A stretch of 64,000 nucleotides of DNA from Candidatus Harrisonbacteria bacterium (GTDB lineage: Bacteria > Patescibacteriota > Minisyncoccia > UBA6257 > UBA11618), in NCBI GenBank assembly GCA_016867415.1, contig VGJO01000002.1, positions 118,472-182,471 of the forward strand, in the 5' to 3' direction. Below the pieces are notes generated by a model. It did no database searches. It saw only the letters and a list, made by a program, of their open reading frames with translations, and was not told the origin of the DNA. Both the position numbers and the translations under genes were made by a program. Each line of letters starts with the position of its first letter. Positions within the stretch are counted from its first letter, which is position 1. Of this stretch, positions 2,033-63,017 are shown piece after piece.

Positions 2033-2343
2033 TAAAAAGTCACACCAAGTAAATCTTCTTCTCAGAAATACATGAATCAGAAAGATACCATTTCCGATCA
2101 TTAAGTTTCCTCAGAAGTTCTAATTCTTCTTAATCAATTTCTTCTTTATTTCGAGCGAGCCGCTTTTTCTGAAGCAAAGTGCTACCAAATAAAAAGGTAA
2201 TTTGGGCCTCCACTACTGCTATATTCTTCTATAAAAGAAAATAGTGGTAAAAGGGGAAAAATATTATTCTTCAAAGTGAGCAAACTGAAAAAAAGATGGT
2301 GCGGCCGAAAGAAAGATAAATGGGTAAGACTGGGGTTTATATT

Positions 2344-3811: not shown

Positions 3812-3879
3812 ATAACCCTTATCTTAATATTACCAAACAGATAATCGTGACAAATATGAGCAGGATTTTTGTCCCTATG

Positions 3880-4067
3880 ATGAGCCTCCACTAGCAATAA
3901 TAGGCTTTAAAAGAAAAAATAAAAACTTCATTAAAGAATGAATAAAATAAGATAAAGCGAGCGAAAGAAAGAGAGGCTTGCGAGGAGGTATGCTGGGCTA
4001 ATGTATGTCGACGAGCAAACAGAATTTTCGACAAAGTCAGAGGAAAAAGAAAAGCGCCAAAAAACAA
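3880..4067 (+). repeat. Degenerate family A-like element, copy R0, abutting smc stop codon; starts with GAGCCTCCAC motif
   Basis: aggtatgctgggctaatgtatgtcgacgagc resembles R8 core cagcatactgggctaagtctgtgagg; 3' end gaaaagcgccaaaaaacaat directly precedes tta (smc stop). Confidence 0.5.
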
Positions 4068-6611: not shown

Positions 6612-6742
6612 GTGACTATTCTGAAGAAAAGATCTTAATTTTTTATGGTATTTTTTATCTCCTTTTTCCCCAAAAAAATCCTTTTCAAGGACAGAAGAAT
6701 CCATTCTCAGGATTGGATTCTGAGTCACAGAAAGAGAGAAGA
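6612..6742 (+). repeat. Family B repeat fragment (B5)
   Basis: cgtgactattctgaagaaaag...tttttatggtatttttt...ttttcaaggacagaagaa...gagtcacagaaag matches family B 3' module. Confidence 0.55.
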
Positions 6743-7965: not shown

Positions 7966-8010
7966 AATATAAAGTTAATTCTACCACACCACATAAGAAA
8001 GAAGAGTGAA

Positions 8011-13882: not shown

Positions 13883-15604
13883 TCACGGCATCTGCACAAC
13901 CGGCATCGTGATTCCGCCTCGACTTCGCTTATACTGCTTCGGCGGAGTATTAGAGACCTCGTTCACCGCCTCCTGTATCTTCGCCCGCTTAAGCGCCTCC
14001 TCAGCTTCTTTTAAAAGCTCCTCCGCCTCTTCTTTTAATTCCTTCTGAAGCTTCGCCCGCTTAAGCGCCTCCTCAGCTTCTTTTAAAAGCTCCTCCGCCT
14101 CTTCTTTTAATTCCTTCTGAAGCTTCGCCCGCTCAAGCGCCTCCTCAGCTTCTTTTAAAAGCTCCTCCGCCTCTTCTTTTAATCTCTTTTCTTTCATTAG
14201 TCCATTCCCCTTCATACAGTAAGATGGTAAAAGCTTTTGCACCTCCACATCACTAATTGCAAGAACTCTCAGATCGAAATCAGAAAGCTTTTTGGCATTA
14301 TCAATAAAATCACAGATATCATTCACCTTATTATCATCAATATCTTTGATATCTTTTATTTTTTGTTCAATTTCTTTCTTCATCTCACGAAGAGTGGCAA
14401 GATTTGCGTTGATTTTATTCCTATTCTTTTCTGTATTAACAACTGCTACATCCACCCATCCTAAACCTTTTCCTTCACTTAGATTTTTAAACAATTCCTC
14501 AAGCCTATTCACTCGCCCCCAAATCACCTGCAACACTGATTGTAGATTATTCTTCATCAAAACTACCTGCCCTCTATCACAAATCGCTTCTCCCTTCGAA
14601 ATCGTCAGAAAGTCGTTAATAAGTTCAGAAAGTCGTAAAAGATCCTTTTCTTCTCCGCTTCGTTTTTTACCTAGAATTAATGGATCTACTATAGTCACCG
14701 ACCCCCCAATAACCGCCACATGATTATTAGCGTTTTCCATTTGCACCAATTCATTCGCAATAGTAATAAGATACCAATTAATATTTCCTAAAAATGAAAT
14801 ATTAGAAAGCACCTCTTGCACACCTTCTAAGATCTGCTTCTTGGCACTACTTACAATAGCAAGAGAGTCTGCTAAAAATACATTTTCAATATTAGTCTTC
14901 ACTTCATTAAGTACCAGACCCTTTATAAGCTCCTCCGCCGCTCCATACTTCTCCGCAAAAAGATCTGCTAACCGCTCGATCAAATTATCGGGTGATTCCG
15001 TATTCCCTTCTACAAACTTCGTCACGTCTGTAAGAAATTCGAAGACCTCGCTTGGGAAAAGTTTGTTATCTTTTGATTTTGCGCACATAAGCGCCACTCG
15101 ACCCTTCACGCATGCTTTATACTCAGAAGACACTCGGCGAAAAAGCGACACCGCCAAATCCGTTACTACTTTCTTAAGATTTTCCAGTTTATCCTCATTA
15201 TTCTTAAAAAACTTTTGAAGCACCGTATCTACTCGAGTTCGCTGATCATTTGAAAGCCGGCTATATGACGAACTAAAAAATCCTTGGGACACCTCTTCCA
15301 TGATCTTCTGTTCAATATTGATAAAAAATTCATCCCCGCCTAACTTCTCCTCCACCGCTTCCCGAATCGCTTTCTCCGCCTCATCAGCCAAAGCCGGACT
15401 GTTTAGCATCTCATCTACAAGTGTTTTCACTTTAACACAACCCACCCTACACCTTTGTTTGATAAGATCAGCAAGAGTAGTAGGCATCTCTTGAGTCTCG
15501 GGTGATGGTTTTTTAGATACTTCTTGAGCCAAGCTAAAATAAGGAAAAGAGAAACAAACCGTACTCACTACCAAAAGAAAAATCATACCCGTTCTCGAAA
15601 ACAT
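13883..15604 (-). CDS. Secreted coiled-coil hypothetical protein with 3 tandem 24-aa repeats
   Basis: 573 aa; signal peptide MFSRTGMIFLLVVSTVCFSFPYFSLAQE; C-terminal repeats LQKELKEEAEELLKEAEEALKRAK x3; stop-start overlap ATGA with upstream gene. Confidence 0.6.
   Translation of the reverse strand: MFSRTGMIFLLVVSTVCFSFPYFSLAQEVSKKPSPETQEMPTTLADLIKQRCRVGCVKVKTLVDEMLNSPALADEAEKAIREAVEEKLGGDEFFINIEQKIMEEVSQGFFSSSYSRLSNDQRTRVDTVLQKFFKNNEDKLENLKKVVTDLAVSLFRRVSSEYKACVKGRVALMCAKSKDNKLFPSEVFEFLTDVTKFVEGNTESPDNLIERLADLFAEKYGAAEELIKGLVLNEVKTNIENVFLADSLAIVSSAKKQILEGVQEVLSNISFLGNINWYLITIANELVQMENANNHVAVIGGSVTIVDPLILGKKRSGEEKDLLRLSELINDFLTISKGEAICDRGQVVLMKNNLQSVLQVIWGRVNRLEELFKNLSEGKGLGWVDVAVVNTEKNRNKINANLATLREMKKEIEQKIKDIKDIDDNKVNDICDFIDNAKKLSDFDLRVLAISDVEVQKLLPSYCMKGNGLMKEKRLKEEAEELLKEAEEALERAKLQKELKEEAEELLKEAEEALKRAKLQKELKEEAEELLKEAEEALKRAKIQEAVNEVSNTPPKQYKRSRGGITMPVVQMP
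13975..14195. repeat. Three tandem ~72-bp repeats (coding, inside 13883..15604)
   Basis: cgcccgcttaagcgcctcctcagcttcttttaaaagctcctccgcctcttcttttaattccttctgaagctt repeated 3 times nearly perfectly. Confidence 0.9.
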
Positions 15605-16330: not shown

Positions 16331-16387
16331 CTTAACGCAGAGTAGTTTTGTACGAATTTTGCAATTTCTTTGCTCGAAATTATTAAA

Positions 16388-16528
16388 ACGTTACACGTCG
16401 TCAAGCGCAGGATTTTTGGATGGAGTTTGCGATTTCTTTCCGAGGAGCCGCCGCAGCGTACTAAGAGCTAGGTACGTGAGGAGGCACCGCAGGAAAAAAT
16501 CGCAAAATCCGCCAAAAAGACCAGCTCG
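16388..16528 (+). repeat. Family A intergenic repeat, copy R3 (abuts dnaE stop codon)
   Basis: gcgcaggatttttggatggagtttgcgatttctttccgag...cagcgtactaagagctaggtacgtgagg...gaaaaaatcgcaaaatccgccaaaaag; last base 16528, dnaE stop 16529-16531. Confidence 0.75.
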
Positions 16529-23339: not shown

Positions 23340-23675
23340 CCAGATTAAATCTAGAATCTATATAAATAAAAAGCTTGAGCGATAGCAAAAGCTCACCTAA
23401 GGTGTAAACCTTCGTTTCATAAAAACGAAGAAATCAATCTTTGATTAAAAAAAGTCGGAGACTTTTTACTCCCTCCTCCACTACTCACGCCACCCAATCT
23501 CTCTACTACCAAAGAAACTTTTATCTTCTCCTAAAATGACCATCCACAGAAAAATGGCATGGTTTTTTTATGGTAATGCTTTTTCTTCTTCTGTCCTCAA
23601 CGGATTGCCATAAAAAAAATTTTCAAGGACAGAAGAAAAAGCCGCTGGGCTTTTTATGGGTCACGGAAGGAAAAG
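23340..23675 (+). repeat. Family B composite repeat, near-full copy B1
   Basis: ataaataaaaagc...cttcgtttcataaaaacgaag...aaaaaagtcggagacttttt...ccaaagaaactttt...atgaccatccacagaaaaatggcatggttttttt...ttttcaaggacagaag...gggtcacggaagg. Confidence 0.65.
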
Positions 23676-26331: not shown

Positions 26332-26416
26332 ATCTCTAAAAAGTCCCTCTATAGTATCAAACTAATCTAAAAAACGCAAATAAATCTTATTCCAAAAATT
26401 TTGATTACTTTCGTAC

Positions 26417-26553
26417 ATCCAGCACAGATGTAAGTGAAGTAATTTTGGAGGATTTTTCGATTTTCTTTTCGAGCAGGCATCGGAGCATACTGCGGGAAGT
26501 ATGTGAGAAGCCAGCGCATAAAAAAAATCGAAAAAGACCCAAAAGTACAAGCG
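26417..26553 (+). repeat. Family A intergenic repeat, copy R4 (abuts nusG stop codon)
   Basis: aagtgaagtaattttggaggatttttcgattttcttttcgagcaggcatcggagcatactgcgggaagtatgtgagaagccagcgcataaaaaaaatcgaaaaagacccaaaagtacaagcg; nusG stop 26554-26556. Confidence 0.8.
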
Positions 26554-27135
26554 TTAAACCTTTTGGACTTGGAGGGAGTCCAGCTCTAAATCCGTTTCCC
26601 GTCCGAAAATCTGCACCGCCACCTTCACTCTTCCTCTCTCCTTATCCACTCCCATCACCTTGCCATCATAATCCTTAAAGGGACCATCAATAATCTTCAC
26701 TAAATCATTCTCATTAAGATCAATGGTAAATTCCTGATCTTCCCTTCCCATTCGCGCAAGCAGGGCATCTACCTCGTGCTTGGAAAGTGGTACAGGTCGA
26801 GTCGTCTCCGGTCCTACAAAGCGAGTCACTCTCGGCGTATTCCGTACCACGTACCAAGTATCTTCATTCATGATCATGTCCACCAAGACATATCCTGGAT
26901 AAATTTTCTCTTCAATCACTCGCCGCTTACCATTCTTCACTTTGATTTTTTTCTCCTTTGGCACTACTACGGAAAAAATCCGATCTTCCATGGAAAGAGA
27001 TCCTACCCGCTGATCAAGATAACGCTTCACCGCATCTTCATAGCCAGAGTAAGTATGCACTGCATACCAATGTCGCTCACCCGAAAGCTTCCCTCCCTCG
27101 ACTATATTTCCTCCCTTCTCTTTATTGTCTTCCAT
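26554..27135 (-). CDS. nusG: Transcription termination/antitermination factor NusG
   Basis: 193 aa; NGN domain HWYAVHTYSGYEDAV; KOW motif near C-terminus; secE-nusG-rplK synteny. Confidence 0.9.
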   Translation of the reverse strand: MEDNKEKGGNIVEGGKLSGERHWYAVHTYSGYEDAVKRYLDQRVGSLSMEDRIFSVVVPKEKKIKVKNGKRRVIEEKIYPGYVLVDMIMNEDTWYVVRNTPRVTRFVGPETTRPVPLSKHEVDALLARMGREDQEFTIDLNENDLVKIIDGPFKDYDGKVMGVDKERGRVKVAVQIFGRETDLELDSLQVQKV

Positions 27136-34669: not shown

Positions 34670-34812
34670 GCGACCTTCTGCAGAAAAGAAGCTTGGCTTT
34701 TTTGTGATATGCTTTTGTCTAGTTTTCTATCCTCAAAGGCATACCACAAAAAATTCTTTTCGAAGCCTGAATGAGAGCTCGCAGGAGCTTTCATGTGTCG
34801 TAATAAGGATAT
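34670..34812 (+). repeat. Family B repeat, 3' module copy B4
   Basis: gaccttctgcagaaaag...ttttttgtgatatgcttttg...cataccacaaaaaattcttttcgaagcctgaatgagagctcgcaggagctttcatgtgtc. Confidence 0.6.
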
Positions 34813-35747: not shown

Positions 35748-35882
35748 CCTCAGTTCCATGAAGTAATTTTGAATAAAGTTTCGCGATTCTTTCCGAAGAG
35801 CCAAGGAAGCACTACTAAGAGCTGAGTATGTGAAGAGGTGCCATAGAAAAAACCGCGAAAATTCTCCAAAAGTACGAGCGCC
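35748..35882 (+). repeat. Family A intergenic repeat, copy R6 (abuts mrdA stop codon)
   Basis: gaagtaattttgaataaagtttcgcgattctttccgaag...ctgagtatgtgaag...gaaaaaaccgcgaaaattctccaaaagtacgagcgcc; mrdA stop 35883-35885. Confidence 0.75.
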
Positions 35883-40359: not shown

Positions 40360-40592
40360 TGCATAAAAAAGTCCCCGACTTTTTACTCACCCCGTCTACC
40401 CTACCATCCTCACCTAATTCTAGCATCACCAAGAAATATTTCTCTCCCTTGAGTGACCATCCGCAGAAAAGTGGCATGGTTTTTTTGTGTTGTTATTTTG
40501 TCTTCCCTGCCCTCAAAAGAACAACACAAAAAACACTTTTCGAGGAAAGAATAAAAAATTCGCAGGAATTTTTTATGCGTCACGAAGAGGAG
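40360..40592 (+). repeat. Family B composite repeat, copy B2
   Basis: aaaagtccccgactttttactcacc...ccaagaaatattt...gagtgaccatccgcagaaaagtggcatggtttttttgtgttgttattttg...caacacaaaaaacacttttcgagg...atgcgtcacgaag. Confidence 0.65.
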
Positions 40593-45816: not shown

Positions 45817-45980
45817 AAAAAATTATTTTTGAAGCCTGAATGAAAGCTTGCTGGATCATAGGACTTTTTGTGCTCTAATAGTCTGAAGATCCACAGTACT
45901 TGGGGGCCTTTCATGTATTGGGAAAAACTTGAGCTTATTTTTTTCCTCTCCCTCTAAATTACTATCTACTAGCCACTGCT

Positions 45981-47505: not shown

Positions 47506-48939
47506 TTAAGGGAATTGATGCAAAAAATCAAAAAAGTGGTAGATGGCAGGTGGCAGTATCGGTAGTAATGATTGCAGTAATAGTAGTGATAATGCAGGTG
47601 CAGGTGCAGGTGCAGGTGTAGGTGCAGGTGTAGGTGCAGGTGTAGGTGTAGATGTAGGTTCAGGTGTAGGTGTAGGTGTAGGAGTAGGTGTAGGAGTAGG
47701 TGTAGGAGTAGGAGGAGGAGCAGGAGGAGGAGCAGGAGGAGGAGGAGGAGGTGGAGGAGGAGGAGGAGGAGGTGGAGGTGGAGGTGGAGGTGGAGGTGGA
47801 GGAGGAGGTGGAGGTGGAGGTGGAGGTGGAGGAGGAGTAAGTTCAGTTGCATGAGGAGGTTCAGGTGTAGGTTCAGGTGTAGGTTCAAGTGTAGGTGAGC
47901 CGTCTACTAGGGCGCCGCCATCGCCGCCATTGCCGCGATTGCCGCCATCGCCACCATTGCCACCATTGCCACCATTGCCGCCATTGCCGCCATTGCCGCG
48001 ATTGCCGCCATTGCCGCCATCGCCGCCATTGCCGCCATCGCCTGTATTGCCTGTATTGTCTGTATTGCCTGTGAATCCAGTCAACTTTGAAATTTCATTT
48101 AATATTAGTTTACGTTCATCAGAATCTCTCAAAAATTTTTCGGCTATTTTTTCAATTTTCGCTTCTATTTCGGCTTGGCTTTTTGGTGACCAAGATTCAA
48201 TAGCGGCAGGCAAAGAACTGGCTTCAATAAAACTATCATTGATGAATACTGGCACTTCTTCTCTCCTTGATTCTCCTCCATACGCTTGGGCTGTTAACCT
48301 CCCCATTTCATTGTTCTTATTCGAAGCAAATCCCCGTTTCCATCCCAATTTTTGCTCTATCCATCTGACCACCCACTGCTCAAAGGATTCGGCCGCTGCC
48401 GCATTCGCCTGCAAGCTTGCGAATCGGACACCCACCGAATAACTCCCGAAAGTATAGTGGTAAAAAAACAATGTATCTTCATTTGTATCCGGATTAATTC
48501 CATTTTTCCCGTTTTGTGGATCAATCGGCAAAGCATCAATCTGAATCCCAGGAATCTGCCGAAAATCAATTGGTAGCCAACCACTTCCATCAATCTGCGT
48601 AAGTCGCTCTTTTGGCACACATCGGTAATCATACCCCTCCGCTAATTGAAGCAAACCCCGATCTCTCCAATAGCCACAAGTCGGATCATCATCTGGTAAG
48701 GAAACATAGACAAGCCGCCGCTCCCCTAAAAGAGCATATTGAGCCTGCTCATCTATAAAGCTAATAAGTTGAGAAAGAAACTTAAGATCTTTATTGCGTT
48801 GCCGATCTACCTGAAAACGAAAAAATTCCAAAGGATTAATCGTCACCGAAAATACCCCTGCAATAAGAAAAAAAGACACCCCGATAAGCAAGGCTTTCAC
48901 CGGAAAAGATAAACGCTCGAGCCTCTGCATGAGCTCCAT
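47506..48939 (-). CDS. Membrane-anchored/secreted hypothetical protein with GN-rich, poly-Pro (34 P) and (TP)n tail
   Basis: 477 aa; N-terminal TM ALLIGVSFFLIAGVF; ~300-aa globular region; then GNGGNGGDGG repeats, P34 run, TPTPTP repeats, hydrophobic C-terminus. Confidence 0.65.
   Translation of the reverse strand: MELMQRLERLSFPVKALLIGVSFFLIAGVFSVTINPLEFFRFQVDRQRNKDLKFLSQLISFIDEQAQYALLGERRLVYVSLPDDDPTCGYWRDRGLLQLAEGYDYRCVPKERLTQIDGSGWLPIDFRQIPGIQIDALPIDPQNGKNGINPDTNEDTLFFYHYTFGSYSVGVRFASLQANAAAAESFEQWVVRWIEQKLGWKRGFASNKNNEMGRLTAQAYGGESRREEVPVFINDSFIEASSLPAAIESWSPKSQAEIEAKIEKIAEKFLRDSDERKLILNEISKLTGFTGNTDNTGNTGDGGNGGDGGNGGNRGNGGNGGNGGNGGNGGDGGNRGNGGDGGALVDGSPTLEPTPEPTPEPPHATELTPPPPPPPPPPPPPPPPPPPPPPPPPPPPPPPPPPAPPPAPPPTPTPTPTPTPTPTPTPEPTSTPTPAPTPAPTPAPAPAPALSLLLLQSLLPILPPAIYHFFDFLHQFP
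47594..48062. repeat. Coding simple-sequence repeats (hexamer ggtgca/ggtgta, trimer gga/ggt, nonamer gccgccatt)
   Basis: Visible runs caggtgcaggtgcaggtgtagg..., ggaggaggaggtggaggtgg..., gccattgccgccattgccgcgattgcc... Confidence 0.9.
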
Positions 48940-50498: not shown

Positions 50499-50583
50499 AC
50501 CAAAATAAATGTTTACAAATTCTACTATAACCCAAACAAAAAATCAATACTAAAAATTTTCAAAATAAAAGCATTATTTCATC

Positions 50584-50805
50584 ACGCTAGCACCCAGCAT
50601 AAGCGAAGTAATTTTGAGCTTATTTTCGTTCTTCTTTTCTAAAAAGGTACCGGAGCATACTACAGGAAGTATGTGAGGAACGTTTTTAGAAAAAAGGATG
50701 AGCCTCCACTACTACTAGATAAACAAAGAAAAAGAAGAAACAGAATAATCAGTAGAAGAGAGATAAGGTCGGCTACACGAGCGAAAGAAGCCAAAAATAC
50801 GAGCG
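50584..50805 (+). repeat. Family A repeat copy R7 carrying a ~100-nt nested insertion (GAGCCTCCAC motif)
   Basis: acgctagcacccagcataagcgaagtaattttgag...ggagcatactacaggaagtatgtgagg... then atgagcctccactactactag...aatcagtagaag... then gccaaaaatacgagcg; rpoA stop 50812-50814. Confidence 0.7.
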
Positions 50806-50811
50806 TTCTCT

Positions 50812-51573
50812 TTACTTCTTTTTTTCTTTCTTCGAAGAAGAAACCGAAGAAGATGTAATTTCAAAGAGAGAAATCTTTTGGAAGTGTTCTTGGAGCACCG
50901 TACACGCCTTGTGCAATGCCTCCGAAGGACTCGTCGAACCATCCGTCTCAATCTGAATCAAGACTTTATTATAGTCTGTCCGATCCCCTACCCGCATGTT
51001 CTGCACGGTAAAATTAGCCTTAATAATCGGAGAAAAAATTGCATCCAAGACAATCACCCCCACTGGCAGCTTTTCAGTCTTCATTGATTCCGCAGTTCGA
51101 TAACCCAAGCCATTTTCTACGGTAATTTCCATATCAAGCTCCGCTGATTTATTCGACAATTGAGCGATATGCGCCTCCGGATTAATCACTTCGACTTCGG
51201 AATTAACCTTTATGTCCCCTGCAGTCACTTCCTTTTCTCCTTTTACTTTAAGAGATAAGACCTGTGGCTCTTCCGAATGAAGCGTAAATCGAATTTTCTT
51301 AAGATTAAGCAAAAGCTCTACCACATCCTCTACCATGCCTGGTAAAGTAGAAAACTCATGATTAACATCCTTTAACTTTATTCGGGTAATCGCCGCGCCC
51401 TTCAAAGAAGAATAAAGTACTCGCCGCAAAGCGCTACCAATCGTAATCCCATATCCGGTATAGAGGCCTTCAATCTCAAACTCACCCGTAGTGGCCGTCT
51501 CTTTGACCTTTTTTATCTGTAATGCCTCGGAAATATTTGTTATTTTCATGTATTCTGAATCCTTATAGAGCAA
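50812..51573 (-). CDS. rpoA: DNA-directed RNA polymerase alpha subunit, N-terminal domain only (253 aa)
   Basis: alpha-NTD motifs GYGITIGSALRRVLYSSL, TRIKLKDVNHEFSTLPG; ends in SSSVSSSKKEKKK without a recognisable alpha-CTD. Confidence 0.85.
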   Translation of the reverse strand: MLYKDSEYMKITNISEALQIKKVKETATTGEFEIEGLYTGYGITIGSALRRVLYSSLKGAAITRIKLKDVNHEFSTLPGMVEDVVELLLNLKKIRFTLHSEEPQVLSLKVKGEKEVTAGDIKVNSEVEVINPEAHIAQLSNKSAELDMEITVENGLGYRTAESMKTEKLPVGVIVLDAIFSPIIKANFTVQNMRVGDRTDYNKVLIQIETDGSTSPSEALHKACTVLQEHFQKISLFEITSSSVSSSKKEKKK

Positions 51574-56640: not shown

Positions 56641-56780
56641 AACAGCGAATAACGTAAGCGAAGTAATTTTGGATGGAGTTTGCGATTTCTTTTCGAGCAG
56701 GCACCGCAGCATACTGGGCTAAGTCTGTGAGGAGCCAGCGGAGAAAAAAATCGCAAAATCCGCCAAAATTACAAGCACCC
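56641..56780 (+). repeat. Family A intergenic repeat, copy R8 (ends 2 nt before rpmB stop codon)
   Basis: aacgtaagcgaagtaattttggatggagtttgcgatttcttttcgagcaggcaccgcagcatactgggctaagtctgtgaggagccagcggagaaaaaaatcgcaaaatccgccaaaattacaagcaccc. Confidence 0.8.
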
Positions 56781-57269: not shown

Positions 57270-57590
57270 AAAGTCTTTGACTTTTTGCTCACCCCTCCAC
57301 TCTCTCCTCTCTTTATTACATCTCAATCTCTGCGCCAGCAAAGAACTCTACCTTTCCCGTGAGTGACCTTCTGCAGGACGAGCTTCCACAAAGAAAAATA
57401 TTCTTTAAAGAAAAAAACAAAAGCATCAGTATAAAAAGACTAAAACAAGATAAAGTCAGCGAGGCATGGTTTTTTCATGGTGTTATTTTTTCTTCTTCTT
57501 TCCCAAAAATAACACCATGAAAAATTTTCTCCGAAGCCTGAATGAAAGCTCGCAGGAGCTTTCATGTGTCACGAAGGGGAAAGGTGGGGT
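57270..57590 (+). repeat. Family B composite repeat, copy B3
   Basis: aaaaagtctttgactttttgctcacc...gtgaccttctgcag...catggtgttatttttt...aaaataacaccatg...gcctgaatgaaagctcgcaggagctttcatgtgtcacgaagg. Confidence 0.7.
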
Positions 57591-59464: not shown

Positions 59465-59770
59465 ACATGTCGGATCCGCGAAGTAATTTTGGAGGATTTT
59501 TCGATTTTCTTTCCGAGTATGAGCCTCCACTACTAAAAGATAGTCTTATGCAATATAAAAACAATAGAATCAGTAGTGAAAATCAGAAAGAGGAACGATG
59601 AGCACAAGAGAGTATATCGAAGGCGATTAGTACTCTAATCGCCTGAAGATCCCGAGTACTCTTGGGGCAATCCATTCTGTGAGTACCGAGCACAGAAAAA
59701 AAATGAAAAGGAGCCTCCACAAGCAATAGTAGAAAATTAGAAAAGGTCAGCGACCCAAAATTACGAACAC
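59465..59770 (+). repeat. Family A repeat copy R9 split by a ~215-nt nested insertion bounded by GAGCCTCCAC-type repeats; abuts stop of 59771..61051
   Basis: gcgaagtaattttggaggatttttcgattttctttccgagt | atgagcctccactactaaaag...ggagcctccacaagcaatagtag | ...cagcgacccaaaattacgaacac followed by cta (stop, minus). Confidence 0.65.
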
Positions 59771-61051
59771 CTAAAAAGAATCAAAGAGCCACGCTTCTAC
59801 TCGCACATCTGGGAAAGTCAACTTCCTATCCTTTACTACCTCCAAAATATTCTCAATCCTCTCTCGTTGATCCGGATTCTCTATCTTAAGCCTCTCAAAT
59901 TCCTTTATATATACCCGCTCTGAATTATTCGGGGTGGTAAGAAATAAAAGCGTCTGAAAAAGGACAGCTACCGCCCGATTCGCTTCGAAAAGCGCCTGCT
60001 CCGGCTGATTATTTTTAAGAAATAGATCTGCCTGATCAAGGAAAAATTGTACCTGATCAATATTCTTTTTCATTGCTCCTTCCGTATCCCACTTCTCTGC
60101 CACCTTTAGCATTTCTCGAGAAAAACGAACGGCCCTAAGCTCCACCTTTTTTATCTCAATTGGCGCTCCAATCATTTTAATGATTTCAAGATTAAGACTA
60201 TCAAAAGTAGCTCGCTCAGCCTCAGAGACCCTGGCCCGAATTGCCACGAGAGCTTGCAGTTTCAAAAGCGGATCAAGATTAGCGGAAAGGAAAAGATTCT
60301 GTTCCTCCCGAGCAATCTTCAAAGCCCGATTAAGATAGCTAAGCATTTCCTCCGAAAGTCGTAAGAGCTCATATTGGTCAGCTGAGCTAAGGCCCGGCTG
60401 AATTGCCGCATCAATAAAAAAATTAAAAGCCGTTACTGCAAGCACCGGATTCGCTTCTTCTAAAAAAAAGACTCGATATTTCTCGCGCACGGTCTCCCCC
60501 GTCGTTCCTAAATCAAAGATAGCTTTAAGAAGCGCCTGCTTCTCTTTTAGCACTACCTCTCCCAAAGGGAGATTAGAAAAAACATCCACATTGGAGTAGC
60601 TAAGATCTAAGGCCTTTGCCTGGATAGCCGGCGAATATGACCTCTGTTTCAGAGCGGCAAACTTCGGCTGAAATGCTCTAAACTGATCTGCATACTGTCG
60701 CACCGCCACTCCCACTGCCTCGCTCCCTTCTGACATGATACCCGAAAGTTTCGTGACCTCCGCCTCCTTGTCTCTTAAGATCGAAAGCTCAAGCAAATTA
60801 CGCTTTTCATCCGAAAAAGTCGTCGCTCGGCGAATCCCCCGTCCCCACTCCTTAAAAAAGTAAAAAGGATTAGAGGGTAAAAGCCCCTCATCCCCCGGGG
60901 CTGCAAAGGTCGAGCCAGAAAAAACTAGAAGACACCCCAAAACAAGCAATGTCTGCTTTAAAATATTTGTAGTAAACTGACGTATACTCATGTGAGTTTT
61001 TATTATATCATATCCACCACAAAAATCAAGGAAAATCCCCCATTTTTTCAT
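59771..61051 (-). CDS. Secreted hypothetical protein
   Basis: 426 aa; signal peptide LLVLGCLLVFSGSTFAAPG; largely helical-looking, no known motif. Confidence 0.5.
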   Translation of the reverse strand: MKKWGIFLDFCGGYDIIKTHMSIRQFTTNILKQTLLVLGCLLVFSGSTFAAPGDEGLLPSNPFYFFKEWGRGIRRATTFSDEKRNLLELSILRDKEAEVTKLSGIMSEGSEAVGVAVRQYADQFRAFQPKFAALKQRSYSPAIQAKALDLSYSNVDVFSNLPLGEVVLKEKQALLKAIFDLGTTGETVREKYRVFFLEEANPVLAVTAFNFFIDAAIQPGLSSADQYELLRLSEEMLSYLNRALKIAREEQNLFLSANLDPLLKLQALVAIRARVSEAERATFDSLNLEIIKMIGAPIEIKKVELRAVRFSREMLKVAEKWDTEGAMKKNIDQVQFFLDQADLFLKNNQPEQALFEANRAVAVLFQTLLFLTTPNNSERVYIKEFERLKIENPDQRERIENILEVVKDRKLTFPDVRVEAWLFDSF

Positions 61052-62819: not shown

Positions 62820-63017
62820 TATGCTAGTCTACATCCTCTTTGTCAAACATATTGCAATAAAAAATAATCTTATTTAGCAGAAAGTTTTCCGAGGATTTTT
62901 TCCGAATGGCTAGGCGCCTTTGAGCATTGCGACCAAGATGTACATAGAGGAAGTACTTCGCGGGAGCAAGCGGAGAAGGCAACAACGCCATTCGGAAAAA
63001 AGACCGAAAACTATAAA

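Follow-up and report, generated by a model that had tools for sequence, protein, structure and literature searches.

An intergenic spacer of Candidatus Harrisonbacteria holds a copy (R9) of a hairpin repeat, family A, that is interrupted by sequence beginning with GAGCCTCCAC. An earlier note on this DNA described the interruption as a single element of ~215 nt bounded by GAGCCTCCAC repeats. It proposed either a second small element that repeatedly lands in family A copies or a modular variable domain of one RNA. The question raised by this locus is therefore what the GAGCCTCCAC segments are and how they came to lie within family A.

The 64,000-nt stretch of DNA that we analyzed (the window) is bacterial, with ~43% G+C and a strongly negative GC skew, and comes from a metagenome-assembled genome (MAG) of an uncultured member of the CPR (Patescibacteria) from Lake Tanganyika. 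Its - strand holds nearly all of the genes, as well as an L10 leader and four tRNAs. The same DNA recurs across several Lake Tanganyika metagenome assemblies, and two contigs, L067 and L071, represent the window plus flanks. The region carrying R9 and a second interrupted copy, R7, is identical or 99.3 to 100% identical in independent JGI, ENA, and Logan assemblies of different samples and is therefore not an assembly artefact. Our census of the GAGCCTCCAC segments covered ~143 kb, or ~15 to 20% of a genome estimated at roughly 1 Mb. Contigs L035 to L059 are probably other parts of the same species, an assignment made because the database holds no RpoA that is >68% identical to that of the window (the closest is 68% identical). 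In a search for an orthologous R9 site in close relatives, the neighboring protein of R9 had no homolog of >47% identity besides itself.

The host repeat, family A

Family A is a ~124-nt noncoding imperfect hairpin of 41 base pairs, known from ~25 copies, whose ends form an inverted repeat. A repeat search, together with a covariance model derived from six clean copies, identified eight copies in the window, in addition to divergent and degenerate ones (Table 1). All of them are + strand elements that run antisense to the genes around them, and in 12 of the 12 copies examined the + strand 3' end falls, in fixed orientation, 0 to 14 nt from the upstream gene's stop codon. The same stop codon adjacency and antisense orientation are found on L035 and L038, whose genes run in the opposite direction. 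Insertion at random does not account for positions and orientations as strict as these.

The two arms covary strongly. Across 19 copies, 91% of cells are paired, versus ~45% when the partner is slid, and compensatory changes occur at 20 of the 41 pairs. Single copies fold with z scores of -4 to -7 on either strand. G-U pairs outnumber A-C pairs overall (51 versus 23), but the counts are 28 versus 23 when two fixed positions are set aside, so no RNA strand is singled out. Rfam returned no match to family A at gathering thresholds across the window and chance-level matches only for R9 and R7 at E ≤ 10. A 20-position pattern of the arms gave only chance matches in GTDB genomes and none in viral contigs; in a metagenome scan, it recovered true copies in Lake Tanganyika samples only.

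Many copies are preceded on their left by ~18 nt of a semiconserved tail resembling AAAACGTTGCACRTCGCC (for example, window positions 16385-16402, 26414-26431, 594-611, and 50583-50600 and L067 positions 7987-8004 on the - strand), which makes the family A unit asymmetric and longer than the hairpin. There are also short forms without the apical part and a long form in which ~70 nt replaces the apex (L038 3641-3729, L035 5495-5567, and L054 419-575). Size variants are thus common beyond those created by the GAGCCTCCAC segments.

Table 1. Family A copies, inserts, and insert-associated features. Positions are those of the window unless a contig is named.
Feature	Position	Strand	Context or evidence
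R9, family A host with two inserts	59476-59772	+	Between stop of DUF5667-like gene (59771) and alaS
Left CCGAGTA, 7-bp direct repeat flanking insert 1	59513-59519	+	Read directly
R9a module	59519-59597	+	Head ATGAGCCTCCACTACTA, hairpin CACTACT...AGTAGTG, A-rich tail ...AGAAAGAGG
Unique 3' extension of insert 1, 54 nt	59598-59651	+	No other copy found
Right CCGAGTA direct repeat	59652-59658	+	Read directly
Divergent apical part and inner 3' arm of family A, between inserts	59659-59709	+	Aligned to A26426, A1153, and L059:4946
R9b module, short form in 3' arm	59711-59751	+	GAGCCTCCAC-AAGCAATAGTAG-AAAATTAGAAAAGGTCAGC
R7, family A host	50601-50810	+	Between rpoA stop (50812) and rplQ; covariance model, 55.8 bits
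R7 module, 83-nt insert in 3' arm	50697-50779	+	Gap versus closest paralog L043:4343
Degenerate family A copy	3857-4066	+	Adjoins SMC stop (4068); partial matches to 5' arm, apical, and 3' parts
E3881 module	3879-3957 (3' limit approximate)	+	Head GATGAGCCTCCACTAGCAATAATAGG and A-rich body
E2204 module variant	2202-2258	+	GGGCCTCCACTACTGCTA...ATAGTGG hairpin, preceded by GGTAATTTGG; trmD-rplJ spacer
Canonical family A (reference A26426)	26432-26554	+	Repeat search, covariance model
Other canonical family A	612-735, 1159-1281, 16403-16527, 35756-35881, 56656-56778	+	Covariance model
Divergent family A copy	62875-63017	+	Covariance model
L067 family A copies	L067 4944-5068, 7862-7986		

Two inserts in R9

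The 5' arm of R9 matches the canonical copies, and its outer 3' arm, GACCCAAAATTAC, lies at 59752-59764. Alignment to the canonical copies placed 139 nt of additional sequence at 59520-59658 (insert 1) and a further ~41 nt at about 59711-59751 (insert 2). With ~50 nt of family A lying between them, R9 contains two inserts and not the single GAGCCTCCAC-bounded element described earlier. Moreover, GAGCCTCCAC starts each of the two inserts, and it is thus a 5' head rather than a bounding repeat.

Insert 1 combines the R9a module with an extension in which a second, degenerate head, GATGAGCAC (59597-59605), is accompanied by a hairpin of 10 perfectly matched base pairs, GGCGATTAG-TACT-CTAATCGCC (-20.2 kcal/mol, z = -3.3). 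Insert 2 corresponds to the R9b module, the start and end of which are both common to the R7 module.

A short block recurs within family A copies

The motif at the head of these segments, which the earlier note had pointed out in R9, in R7, and at position 3881, recurs well beyond chance. ATGAGCCTCCACTA is found exactly at 3880, 50698, and 59519, with variant forms at 59711 and 2204, and every one of these is on the + strand; allowing ≤2 mismatches gave six matches versus 0.25 expected. GAGCCTCCAC is exact at 3882, 50700, 59521, and 59711, and at ≤1 mismatch there were nine matches versus 2.4 expected, a number reached in none of 100 shuffles.

In the ~143 kb sampled, the motif marks six copies of a noncoding block of ~40 to 85 nt (R9a, R9b, R7, E3881, E2204, and one on contig L043, L043:7743). 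The block consists of a conserved 17- to 30-nt head, (G)ATGAGCCTCCACTACTA or ..CCAC(A/T)AGCAATA.TAG, followed by an A-rich body, and in R9a, R9b, and R7 it ends in ..AATCAGTAG..A-rich..AGG(TC.GC). The proposal that the insertions share AATCAGTAG held, in that R7 and R9a have ~61 nt in common, including this stretch, at 72% identity (repeat family D18). Beyond the head, homology among the blocks is weak and A-rich, and short BLAST matches to their bodies are mostly at chance level.

All six copies lie within family A or its remnants, in a single orientation that is that of the host. A check for copies outside family A found none that was clear in the ~143 kb; even E2204 comes after the GTAATTTGG arm start, in a spacer adjoining a stop codon. 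The degenerate element that was said to begin with the motif at 3881 turned out to belong to family A and to carry this same head. Outside the window, L043 is the sole contig with the block, which indicates a low copy number. Its positions within the host number at least four: near the start of the 5' arm (E3881 and E2204), at the junction of 5' arm and apex (R9a), and at two places in the 3' arm (R7 and R9b), where the insertion sites are ~9 nt apart.

Terminal inverted repeats are absent from the block itself, the best pairing being 4 to 5 nt (GAGCC/GG(C)TC); its 5' end is TGAGCCTCCAC, and its 3' ends are ..GAAGATC, ..GGCTACACG, and ..GGTCAGC. A flanking direct repeat is present in one of the six copies (R9a). 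R9b is flanked by GAGCC and GACCC, and R7, E3881, E2204, and L043:7743 have no direct repeat of ≥3 nt. As RNA, the block folds weakly, with + strand z scores against shuffled sequence for the six copies of -1.5, -0.35, +1.4, -2.9 (E2204), -0.3, and -0.7. It has no Rfam match, either at gathering thresholds across the window or, for R9 and R7, at E ≤ 10. R9a and E2204 form a hairpin of the CACTACT/AGTAGTG type, which R9b and E3881 appear to have lost by deletion.

In place of the ~100-nt related insertion suggested earlier for R7, comparison with its closest paralog delimited an insert of 83 nt. With these nucleotides removed in silico, R7 folds as a nearly perfect hairpin of 129 nt (-50.1 kcal/mol), denser at -0.39 kcal/mol per nt than canonical A26426 at -0.33 per nt. 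In at least this case, insertion of the block is clean. R7 and L043:7743, the latter a truncated host copy between convergent genes, have a common junction between host and insert, with 81% identity over the 85 nt across it. This implies that at least some of the spread of the block occurred by copying of the host-block composite as a unit. The notion of a second element repeatedly landing in family A thus survives insofar as there is a distinct block within family A, inserted cleanly in R7; it does not survive as regards a repeat-bounded element, and the R7/L043:7743 composite was copied rather than formed by a separate landing.

Several functional readings of the motif were tried and rejected. 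A Shine-Dalgarno (SD) or anti-SD role for GGAGG/CCTCC found no properly spaced start codon on the - strand; most genes are without an SD sequence, and the probable 16S rRNA 3' end lacks CCUCC. The mini-ORF ATG AGC CTC CAC TA(A/G/C) on the + strand has 4 to 6 codons and no ribosome-binding context. The hammerhead-like GAUGAG...CGAAAG of R7 and E3881 departs from the CUGAUGA core and has no Rfam match. Consensus scans for a promoter or terminator were at chance level, and one copy lies between convergent genes. Structure that would support a tRNA-like acceptor end is absent.

Family A in relatives and the expansion of spacers

The genomes of CPR bacteria are small, with little space between genes. 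Three syntenic relatives (L085, L086, and L087) have the gene order dnaG-rpoD-DUF5667-alaS...S4-rpoA-L17, as in the window, and the family A covariance model found no match in any of them. Their rpoA-rplQ spacers are 11, 41, and 2 nt long, versus 313 nt in the window, and their DUF5667-alaS spacers are 38, 3, and 68 nt long, versus ~390 nt. At the distance of these relatives (66 to 68% RpoA identity), it is empty spacers that are seen, exact empty-site junctions not being readable. The absence of family A from the orthologous spacers identifies it as a lineage-specific, proliferating palindromic repeat, and from its distribution in these sequences it behaves like a lineage-specific MITE-like repeat. 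Family A and the block have inflated the spacers of essential genes (rpoA-rplQ, DUF5667-alaS, and dnaG-rpoD) to 200 to 400 nt, where previously there were a few tens of nucleotides or the genes even overlapped.

Origin of the block

Taken together, these results led us to regard the GAGCCTCCAC segments as copies of a short repeat block, the secondary component of a mosaic system of intergenic repeats in which family A is the host, a reading about which we are evenly balanced between belief and doubt. On this reading, family A would have proliferated in the Candidatus Harrisonbacteria lineage, widening the spacers as described above, and DNA insertion would have brought the block into it at several different points along the hairpin, each time in host orientation. 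At least one composite, of the R7 type, would then have propagated as a unit, and later deletions would have given rise to short forms such as R9b and E3881. The block probably has no function of its own, and its movement presumably relied either on whatever machinery mobilizes family A or on recombination between copies. A scan of 19 window ORFs revealed no candidate transposase, nor did the gene tables of the contigs that were fetched, the ORFs of L035 to L059 lying outside the scan.

The chief competing explanation dispenses with a separate element and has the segments arise by local rearrangement within and between family A copies, through slipped or template-switch duplication, unequal recombination, or gene conversion in hairpin-prone DNA, the head being a degenerate end of the family A 3' arm (ATCCTCCAAAATTAC compared with GAGCCTCCAC-TAC). 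Both the covariance model and local alignment place GGATGAGCC-TCCACTAC on the 3' terminus of family A, and MAFFT aligned CCACTACT to the apical GCATACT. R9 has two or three heads (59519, a degenerate one at 59597, and 59709) along with the duplicated CCGAGTA, and the block is always inside a host and in its orientation, all of which favors rearrangement. Against this, the head of R7 is unpaired with R7's own 5' arm, while the distal 3' arm pairs perfectly after excision, which implies that the head is foreign to that copy. In addition, an exact 14- to 17-mer is common to copies whose host arms differ, and the homology of the bodies (AATCAGTAG..AAGGTC.GC) has no counterpart in canonical family A. 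We therefore consider rearrangement alone unlikely, if well worth keeping in mind. A more elaborate version of events, in which the block is a hairpin-seeking nonautonomous element, a parasite of a parasite, seems to us improbable. Such an element would recognize the single-stranded form of family A hairpins and insert into it with a fixed orientation, and its head would mimic the end of the family A 3' arm because one single-strand enzyme of the HUH/Y1 type handles both.

The earlier suggestion of a modular domain of one RNA fared poorly. It would make family A a functional structured RNA (for example, a 3' untranslated or intercistronic element) with the block as a variable accessory stem-loop domain. 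Strong covariation, the fixed orientation just after stop codons in all 12 copies, the CACTACT/AGTAGTG-type hairpin of R9a and E2204, and the form of R7, where the block is a side branch and the main stem stays intact, are what one would expect of such an RNA. Speaking against it are the weak folding of five of the six blocks, their differing positions along the stem, the lack of an Rfam match, the lack of a clear RNA strand in the G-U and A-C counts, the absence of family A from the same spacers of the three relatives, and the presence of one block copy in a truncated host between convergent genes. We find a role of this kind about as doubtful as the hairpin-seeking element. Finally, the bodies are A-rich, most short BLAST matches to them are at chance level, many contigs break within R7 and R9, and one contig (L084) is probably chimeric, so the segments might be chance matches in A-rich low-complexity spacer DNA or the product of repeat-induced misassembly of the MAG. 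The threefold exact 14-mer, the excess of matches at ≤2 mismatches, and the recovery of the same R9 and R7 sequences in independent assemblies exclude both, and this explanation is effectively refuted.

Relation to known repeat systems

The pattern is a mosaic of small repeats of a kind already known in other bacteria and is not a new type of system. In the BOX elements of Streptococcus (boxA-boxB(n)-boxC), an internal module may be absent or present in several copies while the outer stem is undisturbed, and the pneumococcal BOX, RUP, and SPRITE elements nest in one another (PMC3049150). BOX and the family A/block system are alike in being small, noncoding, modular intergenic stem-loop repeats with mutual insertion. 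They differ in that the block is not tandem at a fixed central position but occupies varied sites in its host, with the two blocks of R9 split by host sequence, and there is no sequence similarity between these repeats from different phyla. We know of no insertion sequence with ends matching those of family A or the block.

The ERIC (IRU) elements of enterobacteria occur in both orientations, and their copies, as Wilson and Sharp reportedly described in 2006, include shorter versions as well as extended ones in which particular internal sites carry insertions. Family A, too, has short forms, long forms, and insert-bearing forms; unlike ERIC, to which it has no sequence relation, it is strictly fixed in orientation, adjoins stop codons, and has strongly covarying arms. 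ERIC itself is a 127-bp imperfect palindrome of transcribed intergenic regions that folds into a long stem-loop and influences mRNA in an orientation-dependent way, and the repeats of the Correia, RUP, and RPE class, of ~100 to 200 bp, likewise give transcripts with long stem-loops and have proliferated in a lineage-specific manner (PMC2229807). Size, stem-loop, and lineage-specific proliferation link the present repeats to the Correia/NEMIS, RUP, and RPE MITEs. In the latter, the terminal inverted repeats are well defined and a TA target duplication is usual; the analysis showed neither feature for the block and no TA duplication for family A. A further likeness is to REP/BIME and REPIN/RAYT, in which a palindromic unit and other short motifs form mosaics in spacers just after stop codons. 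REP units are 20 to 40 nt long and come as inverted pairs, and no RAYT (Y1 transposase) gene was seen in the window or the fetched contigs.

As a MITE in its own right, the block falls short, having no terminal inverted repeats; a duplication of the target kind flanks only one of its six copies. Judged by its spread, with no copies at unrelated sites in the ~143 kb sampled, it would rank as a mosaic module and not as a MITE.

Assembly breaks and other features of the genome

Independent metagenome contigs end repeatedly at window positions 2167, 50607, 50682-50718, 50805, and 59483. These recurrent end points are family A arms or block boundaries, and it follows that the family A and block repeats fragment assemblies of the Harrisonbacteria organism. 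In L084 (a JGI contig), positions 1-242 join a putative 16S rRNA 3' end (..AAGTCGTAACAAGGCACGCGTAGCGGAAGCTGTGCGTAGATCATTTAATG) and ~180 nt to the outer end of R7 (window 50805). This could represent a further R7-like copy downstream of the 16S gene, but the contig is probably chimeric. A recognizable SD sequence is missing upstream of most gene starts on L067 and L071, which is consistent with a 16S 3' end without an anti-SD sequence, as found in L084.

RpoA (window 50812-51573) has only 230 to 272 amino acids here and in all of the closest Patescibacteria relatives (P0014 to P0132), and in all of these proteins Pfam finds no alpha C-terminal domain. Two ORFs contain internal repeats: that at 47506-48939 has in-frame low-complexity arrays with periods of 12 and 9 nt (47578-48084), and that at 13883-15604 has a 72-nt tandem triplication (13969-14188). 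A second, unrelated family of spacer repeats, with the hairpin GGCATGG-T7-ATGG...CCAT-A8 followed by TTTTCAAGGACAGAAGAA or GAAGCCTGAATGAAAGCTCGCAGGAGC, occurs at window positions 23556-23638, 40473-40555, 57463-57570, 34710-34799, 45817-45855, and 6670-6699 (repeat search families D9, D10, and D13 to D15).

Significance of the block and its host

If the block were a hairpin-seeking element after all, this would be the first two-tier mobile repeat system of such a type described in a CPR bacterium. As a nested module, it allows events to be placed in relative order in time and distinguishes subfamilies of family A. It can thereby serve as a marker that helps to reconstruct the spread of the repeats, to explain why assemblies break at repeat sites, and to design a census. 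By itself, the block opens no new biological question. More remarkable is its host, family A, which keeps strictly to one orientation and to sites at stop codons, has arms that covary, and goes along with expanded spacers in the streamlined genome of a CPR bacterium.
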